The translations under genes and the position numbers were made by a program. DNA of 64,000 nt, taken from NCBI GenBank assembly GCA_000002445.1, contig CH464491.1, positions 1,664,001-1,728,000 of the forward strand. Reading direction: 5' to 3'. Every line of letters starts with the position of its first letter. Within the stretch, counting starts at the first letter, position 1. Below, one piece after another: positions 44,496 through 53,075 of this stretch. Under the pieces are notes generated by a model. The model saw nothing but the letters and a program-made list of their open reading frames with translations. It did not search any database and was not told the origin of the DNA. Origin of the DNA: Trypanosoma brucei. Its lineage: Eukaryota.

Positions 44496-45752
44496 TTAGT
44501 CTTTCACCTTTCTCCCCCTTGGGTGATTCGTCTCTTCCTCAAATACAACATCATCGTAATTCTCAATCTTATCAAACTTCCTCTTTTGGCGCTCCTCCCG
44601 AAGGGCCTGCCGCTTTGCTTCTCGTCTCTTTCTTTCTTCCTTTGAGGCAAATAACCTTTCCATTAGGGAGGCACCAGGCACATCCACAATGATGTGCGCC
44701 CTCGCCACCGCTGGCGGATCAGGAAGCTTAAAGAAGTCACGGAACGGCTGCCAACGGAGCAGCAGCGGCTGAAGCAAACCAGCTGTCGAAAGGCCAATCC
44801 AATAGGCAAACATAGCAGCAGGCTGCGAAGAGAAGAAATAAACACCAATGACCGAACCTACGCGCATGCCCCAGCGAACGTATAGGCCGGTTGAACTGCG
44901 GCCGCCGCGCTGCATCATTTGGTTCAGTTCGAAATTCATTAAGAACATGCCTGCACATATCATGGGAAGTCCGTACGTGGGGTCAGGCATCGTCAAGTCA
45001 ACAATCCAAAGAAATGGTGCTCTCTCGAGGTCCGTCTCGTACACAGCCAGGCGACGGACAGAGATAAAAGCAGAGAGAGTCACAGGAGCAGTTATCATCG
45101 ACAAAAAGTTCTTCCATTGTGCGCAGTGATGCTTTTTCATCAGAGCGTACTTCATGCGATTGTACCCCTCCTTAATGACACGTTTCTCCGCCGTGCTAAG
45201 TGAGCGGTCGCTCTTGGCGCGGTTCTGGCAAGTAGCGATCTCCGATAGCTGAGGGTTAATGTGACTTAGGCGGAGGGCATTGCGATGACTTAGCAACGAC
45301 GGGACAAGCGTACACAGTCGCATGAAGATACCATAAAAGAAGAATACGTTCCCCCAACCCCCAAAGTCAAAACCGAATACGCCTTCGTTCCGAAGGTGCC
45401 GCATGATCTCCACTTGCTTCTCAACTGGCTGCAGAAATCCCACAATCCAATCCCAAAAGTCCTCTAGCCGCTCAAAGACGCTCTTCTCAGGACGAATGAA
45501 ATCGTCCACCTCCATCGGCTGCTGAGCGAACACTTCTGGTAATTCTTCTTCGATTTCCTGATGAGATTTGCGCCCTATTGTGTCGGTATTCATCCAACTC
45601 GCTGGGTTCCAGCTGAAACAACGAATAGCCCCTGTCATGGGTGAGGCCAAACCGGTTGCTCGTGGAGCCGCTACAGCGCCGGGCCCCAGTCTACAACCTG
45701 ACACGAGACGGCGCGTGAGCACCCCGCGTGAGACAAAGCGGTGGGCCGACAT
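44496..45752 (-). CDS. Oxa1/YidC/Alb3-family membrane insertase (mitochondrial Oxa1-like), 418 aa.
   Basis: PFLWIVDLTMPDPTYGLPMICAGMFLMNFELN matches the Oxa1/YidC core motif (FLWI.DLS.PDP.YILPI..G..MF.QQK). The N-terminus is arginine-rich and presequence-like (MSAHRFVSRGVLTRRLVSGCRLG). Multiple TM helices. Confidence 0.55.
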   Translation of the reverse strand: MSAHRFVSRGVLTRRLVSGCRLGPGAVAAPRATGLASPMTGAIRCFSWNPASWMNTDTIGRKSHQEIEEELPEVFAQQPMEVDDFIRPEKSVFERLEDFWDWIVGFLQPVEKQVEIMRHLRNEGVFGFDFGGWGNVFFFYGIFMRLCTLVPSLLSHRNALRLSHINPQLSEIATCQNRAKSDRSLSTAEKRVIKEGYNRMKYALMKKHHCAQWKNFLSMITAPVTLSAFISVRRLAVYETDLERAPFLWIVDLTMPDPTYGLPMICAGMFLMNFELNQMMQRGGRSSTGLYVRWGMRVGSVIGVYFFSSQPAAMFAYWIGLSTAGLLQPLLLRWQPFRDFFKLPDPPAVARAHIIVDVPGASLMERLFASKEERKRREAKRQALREERQKRKFDKIENYDDVVFEEETNHPRGRKVKD

Positions 45753-46355: not shown

Positions 46356-48452
46356 TTAAGCTTTACCTGCGTTCGCCAGCGACTCCCTAGTAGATTCATA
46401 GAGCTTCATGACAAGACCAATAGCAATGGTCTTACCGTCTTCACGCAACATGAAACGACCCATTTTGTCAAAATCCTTGTGGGGCTCGAGCACGAGCGCG
46501 CGCTCCAACTCCATTCGAGCGATCACAACATCTCCAGCCTTCACGTGTGTGGGGTCCTTCTGCACAACCTCACCCGTTTTTTTATCCACTTTAGCCAGAA
46601 GTTTGTGGAAAGAAACCTCCTCCTGTGCCGCGTGAGCGTGCAACATGACACGCGATCCAGCACATATAATATTTTTCACGTCCAGTATCACCACACGGGC
46701 CTGGAAGTACTCAACAGCGCGAAGTGACGTCGGAACCGATGTACCCACGTAGCCAGCGTGAACGTCGCCTTCATCCACGCCGCGAACGCGAAGGTGGACG
46801 TTGTCTCCGGGATAACATTTCTCAAACTCTGTCGCCTCAATTGAAATGCCTTCAACAACCGCCTCCTGTTTGCTTGGAAGTATCTGAATCTTTTCCCCAA
46901 CAGCCACGGAGCCAGACTCTACCTTGCCATACACAAAAACGCGACCCTCATCCTTGTATGACCCAACAAGTGGAATACAAAGGACATCGTTTTCGCTTTT
47001 CGTCTCTGGTAAAACAAGCTCGTCGATGAAGCTCATCATTGTTGGTCCTTTGTACCACGGACAGACGCCTTCTGCTGTTTCGCGGATGAGATTGTCACCC
47101 GTAAGGCCAGCAATCGGAATAAATATGAGGTTTTTGGCCTTCTCTTCATCATAACCGTTCTGACGAAGGAAGGGTTTTAGCTTCCCCAGTATGGCATCGT
47201 AACGCTCCTTGCTCCAGTTGACCTCGTCCATTTTGTTGATAACACAGATCATTTGCTTCACGCCACACGTACGGACAAGCATAGCATGTTCGCGGGTCTG
47301 GCCACCTTTCTCAAAACCTGTCTCGAACTCACCAGTACGACTGGAGATGACCAGCACACACACATCTGCCTGGGTTGCACCTCCAATCATTGACGGTACA
47401 AACGCTTTGTGGCCGGGGGCATCGAGAACCGTTATCCGGCGCTTCTCTGTTTCAACATACGCAGCTCCGGTTTCACGCGTGATTCCTTTCGTTCGCTCAT
47501 CTTCCGAAACGTCCATCACATACGCGTACTCCCAACCTTCACGGTGGTGCACCTCCGCCTCACGCCGCAGTTTCTCCATTTCACGCTGGTCCACCAGCCC
47601 CTTCTCCATCAAAAGATGTCCAGAGATGGTCGATTTACCCGCGTCCACGTGACCACAGAAAACAATGTTGAAGTGTGGACGAGGGTCCCTAACAAATTCC
47701 TTTTTATTTTGCTCACGTTGCTTGGCAATCTCGCAACGCACTTGCTCACGAAGTTCCTCCGGGGTCAGCTTCGCAGAACCCTTCTTGTCGTCAGCCGTTG
47801 TCGTGGTTGTGTTTCCGGCGTTATCCTTCGGTTGGCTATCGCTCTTTGCGTTGCCCTCTTTGGGTTTGGTTTCTTCTACCTTCTTCTTACTGAGAGAAAG
47901 AGTACCTGCCTTTGCCTTCTTGGCCGGTGGAACAAACTCGGAGGCACCGCCACCCAGAGACAGCTTTGATGTCTGGGCGGAAGAGGTCTTCGGTTGCTCT
48001 TCCGGCTCGACCTGTTGAGGGGGATTAACATAACCTTGAGTGGGAGCGCCTCCCTGCCCAGTACCTTGGCCTGCGCGGTCGTATTGTTGTGATTGGAACC
48101 GCTGTTGATTATGCACTGCGTTGTAACCGCCTCGTTGCTGGTTGTATACCGGAGTATAACCGCCCTGTTGACCGCCATAACCTTGATTATACCCTCCCAT
48201 CTGATGATTGTAACCAGGGACGTATCCGCCCTGTTGTTGGTATGAAGGATTGTAGCCACCTTGTTGACTGACAAAAGCCGGGTTGTACACCGCTTGCTGC
48301 TGTTGTTGATAAGGCGACTGGTAGTAGTAACCCTGCTGTGGCGCACCACCGGCGTGTCCCTGGTGCTGCTGTGGGTATTGACCCTGTGGGTGTGACGGTG
48401 TGAAGGCGTTCGCGTTGGGGTTAAACCCCCCTGGTTGTGCCCAACCTGACAT
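46356..48452 (-). CDS. ERF3: Eukaryotic release factor 3 (eRF3/GSPT), 698 aa. It has a Q/G/Y-rich N-domain plus an EF-Tu-like GTPase and beta-barrel domains.
   Basis: GTPase motifs GHVDAGKST (G1), DAPGH (G3) and NKMD (G4), followed by eEF1A-like domains II/III. The N-terminal 150 aa are Q/G/Y/N-rich imperfect repeats (QQGGYNPSYQQQGGYVPGYNHQMGGYNQGYGGQQGGYTPVYNQQRGGY). Confidence 0.9.
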   Translation of the reverse strand: MSGWAQPGGFNPNANAFTPSHPQGQYPQQHQGHAGGAPQQGYYYQSPYQQQQQAVYNPAFVSQQGGYNPSYQQQGGYVPGYNHQMGGYNQGYGGQQGGYTPVYNQQRGGYNAVHNQQRFQSQQYDRAGQGTGQGGAPTQGYVNPPQQVEPEEQPKTSSAQTSKLSLGGGASEFVPPAKKAKAGTLSLSKKKVEETKPKEGNAKSDSQPKDNAGNTTTTTADDKKGSAKLTPEELREQVRCEIAKQREQNKKEFVRDPRPHFNIVFCGHVDAGKSTISGHLLMEKGLVDQREMEKLRREAEVHHREGWEYAYVMDVSEDERTKGITRETGAAYVETEKRRITVLDAPGHKAFVPSMIGGATQADVCVLVISSRTGEFETGFEKGGQTREHAMLVRTCGVKQMICVINKMDEVNWSKERYDAILGKLKPFLRQNGYDEEKAKNLIFIPIAGLTGDNLIRETAEGVCPWYKGPTMMSFIDELVLPETKSENDVLCIPLVGSYKDEGRVFVYGKVESGSVAVGEKIQILPSKQEAVVEGISIEATEFEKCYPGDNVHLRVRGVDEGDVHAGYVGTSVPTSLRAVEYFQARVVILDVKNIICAGSRVMLHAHAAQEEVSFHKLLAKVDKKTGEVVQKDPTHVKAGDVVIARMELERALVLEPHKDFDKMGRFMLREDGKTIAIGLVMKLYESTRESLANAGKA

Positions 48453-49379: not shown

Positions 49380-52300
49380 CTACTGCAGAAACTTGAGGTT
49401 ATTAATATGTTGAATTGCCGAAAAGTGCTTAGTGGCGAGCTCTTTCCACATTTCCCTTGAGCGTTGTGATCCTAAACAATTGATATACTCCGATAGAAGA
49501 CCAACCACATCTGGGGGTAAAGAACCTGTCTGCAAGGCTTGGAATAGCTCCATAGCTGCCTTTGCTATGGCTGAACGGCGTTGGGCGTTTGCTACCTGCT
49601 GAATGGTCGTGCGCAACTTCTGCGCTAAGTCCCGATGTTCTGGGTTCAGCGACGAAATTTCAAACGACGACAAACCAAAATCATCCGCCGGTCGACCACC
49701 TGCGGCTGCAAACCGAGGTGGGGCGCCAGGGTTCGCGACCGGAGCGTACGCCACGCCGCCTACCCGTGGAGCTGTCACCACAGGGGGTGCGGTACCAACT
49801 GCAGTGGAAGGAATCCCGGGGGGAGGAGGAGCAACAGAACTGGGCGCTGTCATCGATGCTGCCTGAGGGGGTTGGTTTGTCACACTCTGGGGGTTCATGT
49901 TCCAGTTGGCATTTGAGCCGTCACTGGGCATACGTGGTGGTGGAAGCCCACCCGAGGTCATCGACGGTGGTGCCGACCCTGGTGGTGCCACCATCATATT
50001 CCCAACCCGCGGAGCTGACGGCTCCGGCGACGGGGAACTTTTACCCGTCCGATGCAAACTTCCTGTTGGAGGTGCACCAAAAGTCGATGTCGGGTTGGTG
50101 TCTAATCCTGATGGCGCCCTAGGAGGTAGAGGCATTCCACGTGGACCTGACGGTGGCTGCGCAGGAGTAGGAAATTGCTGAGGTGGTGCTAAAGGAGTTC
50201 CGATGACCTGCTGCGACGGCAGTGATGGAACGACCGTCGGTTGTGCTGGCGCGTGGAGCCCTTGTACAGATGTTACTGACGACCCACATGACGGCGGGGG
50301 TATCATTGGCATAGAACGTTGGGGATCCATATGGTTCGGCGGGCGTGGGGGGGCGGAAGTGGGAACCGGACCTTGCAATTCCTGACTCGGCAGATTTTGA
50401 GGAGGAGCACCACAGTAACCGCTCATCGTCGCAGTGGCAGGGGGGTGGTTTGTTACCACACCTCCTCCAACAGACCCCAAAGAAGACCAGGAAGAAATGG
50501 GATGAGGCATCAGTCTGGGTACCGGTGCAGCGGAGTTCGCCGTTACCGCCGGTCCCGGTTGTTGGGCGATGATCCCTGGTGCCGGCGCCTGTTGCTGCTG
50601 CCCACCGTACATATTGGGTTGCACAGCTGATGGAGGTTGTTGCTGCTGCCCACCGTACATATTGGGTTGCACAGCTGATGGAGGTTGTTGCTGCTGCTGT
50701 TGTTGTGTCGGTGGCGGCATCGTGGCTCCCATACGTTGCTGCTGGTACTGGGGTTGCACAACTGATGGAGGTTGTTGCTGCTGCCCACCGTACATATTGG
50801 GTTGCACAGCTGATGGAGGCTGTTGCTGCTGCTGTTGTTGTGTCGGTGGCGGCATCGTGGCTCCCATACGTTGCTGCTGGTACTGGGGTTGCACAGCTGA
50901 TGGAGGTTGTTGCTGCTGCTGTTGTTGCTGCCCGTTACCCTTGTTAGCCAAAAACTCCAAGCACGACTGACTTAGTGAATCCGAAAGAGGAGTCGCAACA
51001 AACGGGAAGGTGATCTGTCCACACGGAACTTCGAACCTCATCCGGTCTACCATAATTGCGGCGTTGCGATTGCCGACGTTAGCGGACCGCTGAAAAATTG
51101 GCATCGCCTTCGTAAGCAACCCCTTCCCCAACAACCCCAGCCCATATTCATACAAGTAATCCCCAAAGAACGTTGATGTAACCTTCCGCCCCGTCACTTC
51201 CTCAAGAAGAAGTACCTCCTGCACCAGCTTCTCTACAGGCATATTTTCCTCGTGCCACAGTTCCGCAACTGCATCCACATTTCCACTGCAAATAAAACAG
51301 GTCATAGCACTCTCCCTGTTACCCGCTTCCTTGAGGGCAAGTGCCAACTTGTCGCAAGCCTCCGAAAATCTTTCCCCTACAAATGATATTATAACGGAAA
51401 GAGCCTCCTTCCACAACGCGTTCCCACCGACCATCAACGAGCGAAAATCTCCTGCGGCGACTGCAGACGCATACACGATATGCCGTTTCCCCTGAGAATT
51501 CATTAAAATATGCCTGGTATATTCCTGCTGCACTCGCTGCATCAGCTTCCCTCCTTGCAAATAGGCAATAGCAAAGGCATCACCAAACTCGCATTCGTCC
51601 AAACATGCCTCAACCGCCTCATTGATGCGGCCTGCTGCTACATGTGAAGCAGCAATATCTTCTAATGATTTTTGTGTGCCCTGCATCGTCTCAAATGGGT
51701 CCTCCGTGTCCTCAGTTGGTGCGTCCTCGGCGAGGTAGGAAAGGATGGGGGTACGATCGTTTTTGCACGCTGCTGCAGCGGCCAAAAGTGGATATTGGTG
51801 CGCCTTTAGCCACTCTACACGCTCCACAGAGGCGGGTGGTAGTCGAGAAATCTCAGCGACAGGATCCCCACCGCTCATCCCTGACGGATCGGATGCGTTG
51901 TTTGTGACGATACGTGTAAGTCTGACAGCGTTTGCGGAGTGAGAAGACACCGACGCTACGAGCCCACTTATGCCAATAGAAGCCCCACATGGGCGCTGCA
52001 AAGACTTTTGTACCGATGCACCAGGGGCAGGGGCAGAAGACACATCCTCAGCCGTTGATACACAAAACAACGGCTCAAAGGATGACGTCGCCAGGACCAC
52101 CGGAAGTGCTCGAGACCACTTCATGTCAACCATATAGCCGTTTTGCTGTTGCAGTGCGCCATTCCGCTCTCCAGTCGAGGGGTCCCACCATAGTGTCTTC
52201 CCGTCCGCATCACATGACGCGAGAATCGCGTGGTCTGTCATATTCCACGCAAGTCCAGTTACAGCATTCTCGTGACCCAGCATCTCGCGAAGAGGCATCA

Positions 52301-53075
52301 TTGCTTTTTTTAAATCCCAAATTTGTATGGCAGGATGTTTTTCGTCGAGTCCGACAGCAATTTGAGTCGCCATAGATGGATGCCAAGCAATAATGTTTCC
52401 AGATGATCCCGATTTCCCACTCTTGGATACATGCAGCGACACTGCTAGGGTCTGTGTCTTCAGGTTCCACACATTGACAACGCCGTTAGCAACGGAAGTG
52501 GCTAAAATGTGAGGCCACTTCGGGTTCCACTGAAGGTGTGTAATGCCAGCCGGTTGAGCAGAGTCAGGCATAATAGGAACACGCTGCGGCTCTCGTGGGT
52601 TTTCCAACATCCATACATCCCATGCCCCGTCGTCGCCACCGATAGCAAGAAATGTGGGTTGGGACGGGTTGAATTGGCAACCACGGACGGCGCCGCGGTG
52701 CTCAGCAATAACAGAAAGTCGTGGTTCTTCCGTGTTACGGTCAGGATTGATTCCATAGTTTTTCATCATGATAGACGCATCGTACACGTACACGGCTCCA
52801 TCTTCACAAGAAACAGCAATGATGCCTCGTTCCCCGCCGTGTGGACTCCAGTCAACACGGAGAGCGTGTGCCGGAATCACCGTACGACCCAAAACGGGCA
52901 TCTCTGTCTCATCCGTCTGCGTGACATCAACCAACCGTATCTCGAGAAAGGCCTCACCAGAAAAGTTGTCATCAATTGCTCCGGCAACGGACGCCGCGGC
53001 GAGAAACGTTGGTGTTCCCAGAACCTCCGGTGCCCACGCAAAAACGCAGGTCAGGGGTGTGGCCTTTAAGCGCAT
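49380..53075 (-). CDS. SEC31: COPII outer-coat subunit Sec31, 1231 aa. It has an N-terminal WD40 propeller, an alpha-solenoid, and a Pro/Gln-rich disordered region with tandem repeats.
   Basis: The N-terminus (MRLKATPLTCVFAWAPE...AIDDNFSGEAFLEIRLV) parallels the Sec31 start. WD repeats run through residue ~340 (LAWNMTDHAILASCDADGKTLWWD, etc.). The central region is helical. A long P/Q/S-rich segment follows, then a conserved C-terminal helical tail. Confidence 0.85.
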   Translation of the reverse strand: MRLKATPLTCVFAWAPEVLGTPTFLAAASVAGAIDDNFSGEAFLEIRLVDVTQTDETEMPVLGRTVIPAHALRVDWSPHGGERGIIAVSCEDGAVYVYDASIMMKNYGINPDRNTEEPRLSVIAEHRGAVRGCQFNPSQPTFLAIGGDDGAWDVWMLENPREPQRVPIMPDSAQPAGITHLQWNPKWPHILATSVANGVVNVWNLKTQTLAVSLHVSKSGKSGSSGNIIAWHPSMATQIAVGLDEKHPAIQIWDLKKAMMPLREMLGHENAVTGLAWNMTDHAILASCDADGKTLWWDPSTGERNGALQQQNGYMVDMKWSRALPVVLATSSFEPLFCVSTAEDVSSAPAPGASVQKSLQRPCGASIGISGLVASVSSHSANAVRLTRIVTNNASDPSGMSGGDPVAEISRLPPASVERVEWLKAHQYPLLAAAAACKNDRTPILSYLAEDAPTEDTEDPFETMQGTQKSLEDIAASHVAAGRINEAVEACLDECEFGDAFAIAYLQGGKLMQRVQQEYTRHILMNSQGKRHIVYASAVAAGDFRSLMVGGNALWKEALSVIISFVGERFSEACDKLALALKEAGNRESAMTCFICSGNVDAVAELWHEENMPVEKLVQEVLLLEEVTGRKVTSTFFGDYLYEYGLGLLGKGLLTKAMPIFQRSANVGNRNAAIMVDRMRFEVPCGQITFPFVATPLSDSLSQSCLEFLANKGNGQQQQQQQQPPSAVQPQYQQQRMGATMPPPTQQQQQQQPPSAVQPNMYGGQQQQPPSVVQPQYQQQRMGATMPPPTQQQQQQQPPSAVQPNMYGGQQQQPPSAVQPNMYGGQQQQAPAPGIIAQQPGPAVTANSAAPVPRLMPHPISSWSSLGSVGGGVVTNHPPATATMSGYCGAPPQNLPSQELQGPVPTSAPPRPPNHMDPQRSMPMIPPPSCGSSVTSVQGLHAPAQPTVVPSLPSQQVIGTPLAPPQQFPTPAQPPSGPRGMPLPPRAPSGLDTNPTSTFGAPPTGSLHRTGKSSPSPEPSAPRVGNMMVAPPGSAPPSMTSGGLPPPRMPSDGSNANWNMNPQSVTNQPPQAASMTAPSSVAPPPPGIPSTAVGTAPPVVTAPRVGGVAYAPVANPGAPPRFAAAGGRPADDFGLSSFEISSLNPEHRDLAQKLRTTIQQVANAQRRSAIAKAAMELFQALQTGSLPPDVVGLLSEYINCLGSQRSREMWKELATKHFSAIQHINNLKFLQ
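50580..50935. repeat. Nested in-frame tandem repeats inside Sec31: a 135-bp unit (45 aa) x2 containing and followed by a 48-bp unit (16 aa, PPSAVQPNMYGGQQQQ) x4-5.
   Basis: The motif tgtcggtggcggcatcgtggctcccatacg recurs at 50706 and 50841 (135-bp period). The motif ttgctgctgcccaccgtacatattgggttgcacagctgatggagg recurs at 48-bp spacing. The plus-strand CCCC-rich ORFs at 50569-50970 are the antisense of the CAG/CAA codons. Confidence 0.85.

Follow-up and report, generated by a model that had tools for sequence, protein, structure and literature searches.

Does the translation termination factor of a trypanosome dock onto poly(A)-binding protein (PABP), and if so, through which part of its sequence? 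The question is raised by a gene for eRF3 (eukaryotic release factor 3) in a 64,000-nucleotide stretch of Trypanosoma brucei DNA (contig CH464491.1; hereafter the window). An earlier, sequence-only reading described the N-terminal region of this protein as a Sup35-style prion-like domain, and placed a PAM2 motif, the kind that binds the MLLE domain of PABP, at residues 163–176. The analysis below points to a different site. A conserved PAM2 motif at residues 10–19, close to the N-terminus, is the probable PABP docking site, and the sequence proposed earlier is confined to the T. brucei lineage, with a partial version in T. vivax.

Kinetoplastids control gene expression almost entirely post-transcriptionally. 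Their two PABPs have distinct partners, and whether these organisms carry out classical nonsense-mediated decay is unsettled. If the N-terminal PAM2 binds PABP1 or PABP2, it would connect termination with the poly(A) tail, a molecular link that has been missing for kinetoplastids. That their eRF3 has a conserved PAM2 near the N-terminus is no surprise, but the motif is useful for the design of experiments: its position corrects the experimental target, and F17A would be a clean point mutant for the PABP link.

An eRF3 gene with a long disordered N-terminal tail

46356–48452, reverse strand: eRF3 coding sequence, 698 residues plus stop

The open reading frame encodes a class-2 release factor, with an EF1A-like GTPase and domains 2 and 3, and the earlier gene call of eRF3 was correct. 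Pfam matches (GTP_EFTU, 2.6e-44; GTP-eEF1A_C; D3; D2) run from residue 259 on, and the top PDB matches are the C-terminal regions of mammalian eRF3a (2e-124) and S. pombe Sup35. The protein is 100% identical to the 'eukaryotic release factor 3' of T. brucei brucei TREU927 (XP_828690; Q385F3_TRYB2) and T. equiperdum, and its orthologues carry the name eRF3 in their source databases. Because of this identity, the window can be assigned to T. brucei-group DNA. The MSGW/MSW N-terminus, invariant in all orthologues, speaks for the start codon.

AlphaFold2, run with a 50-sequence alignment, gave a predicted local distance difference test (pLDDT) score below 50 for residues 1–225 and scores of 85–97 from about residue 230, with a helix at residues 231–248. 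The entire stretch of residues 1–225 is thus predicted to be disordered.

A conserved PAM2 motif at residues 10–19

48396–48425, reverse strand: conserved N-terminal PAM2 motif FNPNANAFTP, residues 10–19, with key aromatic F17 (Pfam, scoring matrix, conservation, checked translation)
48426–48452, reverse strand: invariant N-terminal MSGW/MSWQQP segment, residues 1–9 (alignment, count of SW-type motifs)

The peptide FNPNANAFTP fits the 12-residue PAM2 consensus in register (a hydrophobic residue at position 3, then N4, A7, F10 and P12). It scored 27.2 bits on a position-specific scoring matrix (PSSM) built from the PAM2s of non-kinetoplastid eRF3s (28 sites), against a maximum of 16.7 bits among 3000 shuffles. 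It was also the sole match in the protein to the Pfam PAM2 model (PF07145), at residues 10–20, scoring 11.1 bits in the full protein and 16.6 bits (E = 0.0064) when scanned as a peptide.

The site is widely kept among relatives. Of 33 kinetoplastid-type N-termini, 25 carry the pattern [FVIY]N[PAS][NGS]A..[FYW].P and two more narrowly miss it; the sequences that have it include all six Trypanosoma species, Leishmania, Leptomonas and six bodonid-like sequences. Conservation in 25/33 N-termini is combined with predicted disorder (pLDDT <50), and disorder is the usual setting of PAM2 motifs (PMC6379680). This test of conservation rests on the full-protein orthologue set, because a database search with the N-region only (residues 1–266) returned one T. 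cruzi fragment and added no more close relatives.

The same motif occurs near the N-terminus of eRF3 elsewhere: in Euglena (MNPGAANWQP), in chytrids and other fungi (YNPNAHEFVP, LNPGAFEFVP) and in a vertebrate (LNVNAKPFVP). It usually follows a short SW-type motif, of the form [SGCN]W[EDQASP], which was found in the first 45 residues of 49 of 94 eRF3s (2.3 expected) and lay N-terminal of PAM2 in 31 of the 32 eRF3s having both. In the kinetoplastid alignment M1, S2 and W4 are invariant, even in sequences without PAM2. As the motif is shared with the eRF3 N-termini of other eukaryotes, and usually comes after an SW motif, the comparison argues that the kinetoplastid site at residues 10–19 is the ancestral eRF3 PAM2. 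FNPNANAFTP is the probable MLLE docking site of trypanosome eRF3. The PABP coupling predicted earlier is likely, via residues 10–19 and not via the site to which it had been attributed. We found no paper naming a PAM2 in kinetoplastid eRF3.

Comparison with known PAM2–PABP pairs

Kinetoplastid MLLE domains can be regarded as PAM2-competent because the complex of Leishmania eIF4E4 with PABP1 has been solved (PMC6379680). In that crystal structure the peptide MNPNATEFMP is the PAM2, and it binds PABP1 with a Kd of ~22–33 nM. The N-terminus of T. cruzi eIF4E3 binds PABP1 as well as PABP2, in each case at the MLLE domain (PMC11754739). Six of the 10 residues of the eIF4E4 PAM2 are common to eRF3 10–19, including N-P-N-A, F and P. 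The two proteins differ in that eIF4E4 is a cap-binding factor whose PAM2 has Glu-Phe, whereas eRF3 10–19 has Ala-Phe. The Glu before Phe contributed substantially to eIF4E4 binding, and the Glu-Phe pair mattered most in mutagenesis (PMC6379680). Residues 166–175 of T. brucei eRF3 do have Glu-Phe as in eIF4E4, but without N-P-N.

Human eRF3a (GSPT1) is of the same family as the T. brucei protein and carries its motif, of the form Phi-N-x-N-A-x-x-F-x-P and also without Glu9, in a disordered N-terminal extension. Its PAM2-N, LNVNAKPFVP, binds the PABPC1 MLLE at ~4 μM without Glu9 (PMC2854688). A [SC]W[DE] motif lies upstream in vertebrate and other eRF3s, as it does in kinetoplastids. Human eRF3 has two overlapping PAM2s (PAM2-N and PAM2-C) ~70 residues in, whereas T. 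brucei has one at residues 10–19. A candidate second site in T. brucei would be separated from it by 150 residues, on the far side of the low-complexity region, unlike the overlapping human pair. MLLE binding has been measured for human eRF3 and is predicted for T. brucei eRF3.

The PAM2-like site at residues 166–175

47928–47957, reverse strand: PAM2-like site with core LGGGASEFVP, residues 166–175, with F173 (T. brucei lineage; partial in T. vivax)
47880–47966, reverse strand: conserved block KLSLGGG..PKK..GTLSLSKKK, residues 163–191, with two LSLG-type motifs (alignment, hidden Markov model)

The peptide to which the sequence-only reading had assigned PAM2, KLSLGGGASEFVPP, covers residues 163–176 (window 47925–47966). 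Its core, LGGGASEFVP, fits the pattern Phi-x3-A-x2-F-x-P: L3, A7, E9, F10 and P12 are present, with GGG instead of N-x-N. This regular expression gave 0.026 matches per shuffled N-region, and over the ~12,000 residues of window open reading frames it matched only eRF3 166–175 and eRF3 10–19. On the PSSM, which was added because HMMER filters can drop weak matches, the T. brucei core scored 18.8 bits, above the maximum of the 3000 shuffles (16.7).

The fit did not extend to relatives. The corresponding sequences scored 3.9 bits in T. vivax, -2.9 in T. cruzi, -11.1 in T. congolense and -14.4 in L. infantum, and the Pfam PAM2 model found no match at E ≤ 10 in the second-site peptides of T. brucei, T. 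vivax, T. congolense, T. cruzi, L. infantum or the kinetoplastid-type orthologue P0010. Among 19 aligned kinetoplastid-type sequences, the F173 column holds Phe in T. brucei and T. vivax only. The T. congolense sequence, KLSVGGESPESVPLQKK, has Ser at this position and has lost L3, A7 and F10. Outside these three species the column holds Pro, Ser, Asp or Glu. The local sequence is EPVV[VM]PKK in T. cruzi, T. rangeli and T. melophagium, EPI[IV]MPKK in the bodonid-like sequences, QPVV[LA]PKK in Leptomonas pyrrhocoris and L. braziliensis, and KSVVVPKK in L. infantum. The site does not vary among T. b. brucei, T. b. gambiense and T. equiperdum. The fit claimed for residues 163–176 is seen at five consensus positions in T. 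brucei itself, but the Phe is not conserved and Pfam gives no match; a loss of the AxEFxP residues in close relatives, named beforehand as refuting the motif, is what we observed. The sequence of residues 166–175 is Trypanozoon-specific and partly shared with T. vivax.

What is conserved here is a different block, in the order KLSLGG, spacer, PKK, three residues and GTLSLGKKK. The candidate site overlaps its first half, and the L3 of the candidate belongs to the first LSLG unit. A hidden Markov model built from the block alignment found it in all kinetoplastid-type orthologues; in eRF3s of fungi, Euglena and other organisms it picked up LSLG-like units singly. EFVP arose in the spacer of this block by lineage-specific substitutions that changed an ancestral-type EPVVVPKK to EFVPPAKK. 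It may or may not serve T. brucei as a second, weaker MLLE-binding site.

Two further orthologues from Logan assemblies, P0010 and P0023 (contig L001 is from SRR22803264), have no N-terminal PAM2 and start with MSWQQPPWGNPYNQ. Their second block has a Phe, in GGGTGFIPPP or GGGVGFVPP. The PABP site may have moved in these sequences, or the pattern may be a coincidence.

The Q/G/Y-rich low-complexity region

48003–48395, reverse strand: Q/G/Y/N/P-rich, prion-like low-complexity region, residues 20–150 (composition, pLDDT <50)
48108–48269, reverse strand: five imperfect repeats with a Q-x-GGY core, 10–12 residues each, residues 62–115 (unit table, shuffle test)

Residues 1–150 had been described as almost exclusively Q, G, Y, N and P. 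The bias is extreme, with Q at 23%, G at 19%, Y at 11%, P at 10% and N at 7%, but at a sum of 71% (19–23% elsewhere in the protein) 'almost exclusively' is an overstatement. Aromatic residues make up 15% of the low-complexity region and are on average 6.4 residues apart. Only two of the 17 large open reading frames in the window, eRF3 and a Sec31-like neighbour, exceeded a QGYNP share of 0.7 in a 100-residue window, and the others reached at most 0.36. The recurring QQGGY-type units reported earlier were borne out: Q.GGY occurs five times, spaced 10–11 residues apart (residues 63, 73, 84, 95 and 106), against a mean of 0.14 in composition-matched shuffles, none of which gave five (0/5000, P < 0.0002). 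Tandem Repeats Finder detected no repeat in the DNA at these units, which are too diverged and are visible at the protein level only.

Across Trypanosoma, Leishmania and bodonid-like sequences, orthologues keep 64–73% QGYNP in this region with an identity of just 30–47%, compared to 78–94% in the GTPase part. Its composition is conserved and its sequence is not. Within Trypanozoon there is little variation. The T. b. brucei, T. b. gambiense and T. equiperdum proteins are each 698 residues long and differ at four positions (V55G, V102G, A112T and G225S), none of which affects either PAM2-type motif. The comparison of repeat number among isolates proposed earlier showed no change in these three sequences.

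The region of T. melophagium (P0003) contains four near-perfect GGQQGGYYPSYQQQGGGY units, and that of T. cruzi (P0005) contains three QPQFGGYSGAYYPPQQQHQ units. Such species-specific, partly near-perfect units indicate recent independent expansions, similar to the way the oligopeptide repeats of Sup35 turn over between yeast species. In Leishmania, eRF3 length varies between entries, with 756 residues in L. infantum compared to 712 and 687 in L. donovani, and 753 compared to 649 in L. braziliensis. Between these entries from closely related species or strains (P0009 compared to P0016/P0020, and P0013 compared to P0019/P0021), stretches of 44, 69 and ~104 residues are cleanly deleted inside the Q/G/Y region. 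These deletions are either a real length polymorphism or an assembly collapse of repeats.

Prion-like composition and comparison with Sup35

The N-region of T. brucei eRF3 has the composition of a yeast-type prion domain: it is Q/N-rich, charge-poor and contains oligopeptide repeats. We compared it with a Sup35 NM reference that was checked against PDB 9xbn (residues 1–253 identical). The composition of T. brucei residues 1–150 correlates with that of Sup35 1–123 at r = 0.92 (Jensen-Shannon divergence 0.096), and each stretch has five charged residues. Together with the Q.GGY repeats, this bears out the Sup35-like composition claimed earlier. The two regions belong to the same protein family, lie in the same place N-terminal to the GTPase, are charge-poor and have about five copies of a QGGY-core repeat.

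They also differ. T. brucei has less Asn than Sup35 (7% compared to 16%), more Pro (10% compared to 5%) and less Gln plus Asn (31% compared to 45%); it has some Val and His, and no N-terminal QN-rich tract. Its repeats have a period of 10–12 residues, compared to nine in Sup35 (PQGGYQQYN), and the sequences are not alignable. A canonical PAM2 is present in T. brucei eRF3 and not in S. cerevisiae Sup35 (PMC4274632), and prion behaviour has been demonstrated for yeast Sup35 only.

We re-implemented PAPA with residue propensities calibrated on Sup35 only, and the scores are approximate. T. brucei scored 0.122 (at residue 78) and Sup35 scored 0.100, with a published cutoff of 0.05. Five of the six other trypanosomatid species scored were under the cutoff, with approximate values of -0.03 in T. 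congolense, -0.05 in T. vivax, 0.00 in T. cruzi, -0.02 in T. rangeli and 0.03 in L. infantum.

The composition itself has been described before. Atkinson et al. (2008; PMC2613156) reported Gln/Gly/Asn/Tyr repeats in the eRF3s of L. major and T. cruzi, deemed them unlikely to be homologous to the yeast repeats and found no evidence of prion behaviour. A study in mBio (2025; PMC12153298) identified with PLAAC a prion-like domain in eRF3 that is 'present in all kinetoplastids'. Both cover the same N-domain feature, and neither text has the PAM2, the LSLG block or the SW motif. The prion-like composition of kinetoplastid eRF3 is therefore supported as real but was already published in 2008 and 2025; it adds nothing new here, and the predicted propensity is not conserved among trypanosomes.

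A PABP-docking model and its alternatives

We consider the best explanation to be that T. brucei eRF3 has a modular disordered tail with an N-terminal PAM2 at residues 10–19 as its PABP site, to which we give a probability of roughly 70%. In this model, the PAM2 would dock onto the C-terminal MLLE of poly(A)-bound PABP1 and/or PABP2, and would tether the termination factor to the 3′ end of the mRNA, as in mammals. The eRF1–eRF3 complex would be brought to the 3′ end and termination would be promoted, just as PABP promotes it in a reconstituted mammalian system (PMC5027505). Judged by its composition, the low-complexity region would act as a long, flexible, aromatic-rich tether, and might allow weak multivalent self-association and partitioning into ribonucleoprotein condensates or granules. 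The N-terminal site is favoured because it is the sole Pfam PAM2 match, scores 27.2 bits and is conserved across Kinetoplastea. Residues 163–176 are not favoured as the PABP site of trypanosome eRF3, because they have no Pfam match and are not conserved, and because a different block is conserved there.

Several observations weigh against this assignment. FNPNANAFTP falls short of the Pfam gathering score (16.6 compared to 20 bits), which is a weak negative, as short-motif models often miss true sites. The T. cruzi and Leishmania peptides, with Tyr for Phe, gave no Pfam PAM2 match, and precomputed PF07145 annotation is absent from every kinetoplastid orthologue. The training sites of the PSSM were chosen by a regular expression that both candidate sites satisfy. 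The motif is entirely missing in six kinetoplastid-type sequences (P0010, P0023, P0027-29 and P0040), and it is without the Glu that is important for binding of Leishmania eIF4E4. A published trypanosomatid eRF3–PABP interaction was not found in the literature. There is no mention of eRF3 in the T. brucei PABP1/2 proteomics paper and the accessible part of its supplements, nor in the Leishmania PABP interactome paper, and it is not listed in the accessible part of a proteome-wide HMMER survey of PAM2 in T. cruzi (PMC11754739).

The alternative closest to the sequence-only reading takes KLSLGGGASEFVPP as the PABP-binding PAM2 and the Q/G/Y region as a Sup35-style prion domain that forms heritable amyloid. 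The peptide has five consensus positions and outscores all 3000 shuffles, it has a Glu-Phe pair like that of eIF4E4 in a disordered region, and it is identical in the three Trypanozoon sequences; the approximate PAPA-like score (0.122) is above the 0.05 cutoff and the correlation with Sup35 N is high (r = 0.92). Yet the Phe is missing in T. congolense, T. cruzi, T. rangeli, T. melophagium, Leishmania and bodonid-like sequences, Pfam finds no PAM2 at the peptide, and a better and conserved PAM2 is present at residues 10–19. On the prion side, five of six other species are under the PAPA-like cutoff, Asn is low (7%) and Pro is high (10%), and the repeats have been judged non-homologous to those of yeast, with no evidence that they are prionogenic (PMC2613156). 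We regard this combination as improbable. A heritable prion state of T. brucei eRF3, taken by itself, is possible but unsupported, and we rate its chances as very low. A different account treats the low-complexity region as a functionless neutral spacer produced by replication slippage, with its resemblance to Sup35 a coincidence. Species-specific units (GGQQGGYYPSYQQQGGGY four times in T. melophagium, QPQFGGYSGAYYPPQQQHQ three times in T. cruzi), internal deletions of 44–104 residues between Leishmania strains, an identity of 30–47% and the lack of an N domain in Giardia eRF3 (PMC2613156) all fit such a spacer. It is nevertheless unlikely, as 64–73% QGYNP is held across Trypanosoma, Leishmania and bodonid-like sequences despite this turnover, similar Q/G/Y-rich regions occur in Euglena, chytrid and ascomycete eRF3s, and length is fixed at 698 residues in the three Trypanozoon sequences.

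T. brucei eRF3 could also have two functional PAM2s, the ancestral one at residues 10–19 and one evolved in salivarian trypanosomes at residues 166–175, flanking the low-complexity region; it could then contact a pair of MLLE domains, or bind a single PABP with greater avidity. Both sites outscore every shuffle and are the only matches to the regular expression in ~12,000 residues of window open reading frames. T. vivax retains EFVP, and P0010 and P0023, which have no N-terminal motif, have GF[IV]PP in the second block. Human eRF3 and many fungal eRF3s carry twin PAM2s, and in its outcome the arrangement would be analogous to the overlapping human pair. Against this, T. congolense, a nearer relative of T. 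brucei than T. vivax, has lost L3, A7 and F10. T. vivax itself has Gly at A7 and scores only 3.9 bits, the site has GGG instead of the N-x-N turn, and the conservation that flanks it belongs to another motif, LSLG...PKK. We therefore hold two functional sites to be possible but doubtful. A further elaboration, in which the two sites bracket a condensate-prone region so that eRF3 bridges two PABPs, or PABP1 and PABP2, with the second site hosted by an ancient LSLG block that is maybe the counterpart of Sup35 129–148, seems to us improbable.

LSLG-type and SW-type motifs

The LSLG-type motif consists of one or more basic residues with [VILT][LIV][ST][LI][GS], as in KLSLGG, TLSLGKK, KVISLSAKP, AVSLSIGG and KVLSIG. 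It occurs one to four times in the N/M region of eRF3 in kinetoplastids, Euglena, many fungi and other protists (examples beyond T. brucei are P0071, P0061, P0065, P0109, P0068, P0088, P0110, P0117 and P0118). Its regular expression gave 31 matches, compared to 0.6 expected from shuffles, and none in a vertebrate sequence. There was no correlation between the motif and the presence of a Q/G/Y-rich region (Fisher P = 0.23). A role as a chaperone-docking motif is unsupported, given this result and the occurrence of the motif in eRF3s without a low-complexity region. Intramolecular docking of the 163–191 block was not seen in the AlphaFold2 model, where the block is low-confidence coil. Residues 129–148 of Sup35 are the mapped direct Hsp104-binding stretch (PMC8699242), and they are loosely similar to the LSLG motif. 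No description of the motif was found in the literature.

SW-type motifs include MSWQQP and MSGWAQP in kinetoplastids; fungi have DSWE(D/E), and a vertebrate sequence has APDSWELEDD. Both types of motif, LSLG and SW, may be general features of eRF3 tails, if minor ones.

Tail layout and neighbouring genes

47769–47879, reverse strand: K/E/T-rich disordered linker, residues 192–228 (composition; pLDDT <50 to residue 225)
46359–47768, reverse strand: pre-G helix, then GTPase and domains 2 and 3 (AlphaFold2, Pfam)

From the N-terminus, the tail consists of the SW motif, PAM2, the Q/G/Y low-complexity region with its repeats, the basic LSLG block and the K/E/T-rich linker, followed by the helix and the GTPase. 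This is an ordinary eRF3 architecture, with a modular layout common to the eRF3s of many eukaryotes.

The downstream neighbour (44496–45752, reverse strand) encodes 418 residues with a match to 60KD_IMP (Oxa1/YidC-type insertase) of 32.1 bits, under the cutoff of 35. The order of eRF3 and this insertase gene is also found on kinetoplastid contig L001 (SRR22803264), in synteny with T. brucei. The gene directly upstream on the same strand (open reading frame 49380–53075) encodes a 1231-residue WD40 protein with a Sec16/Sec31-type domain. This Sec31-like protein has Q/P-rich tandem repeats, with QQQQQQPPSAVQPNMYGG and QYQQQRMGATMPPPT units, at residues ~712–830 (window 50586–50942, reverse strand). 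It reaches at most 74% QGYNP in a 100-residue window, and so a second low-complexity region lies beside that of eRF3.

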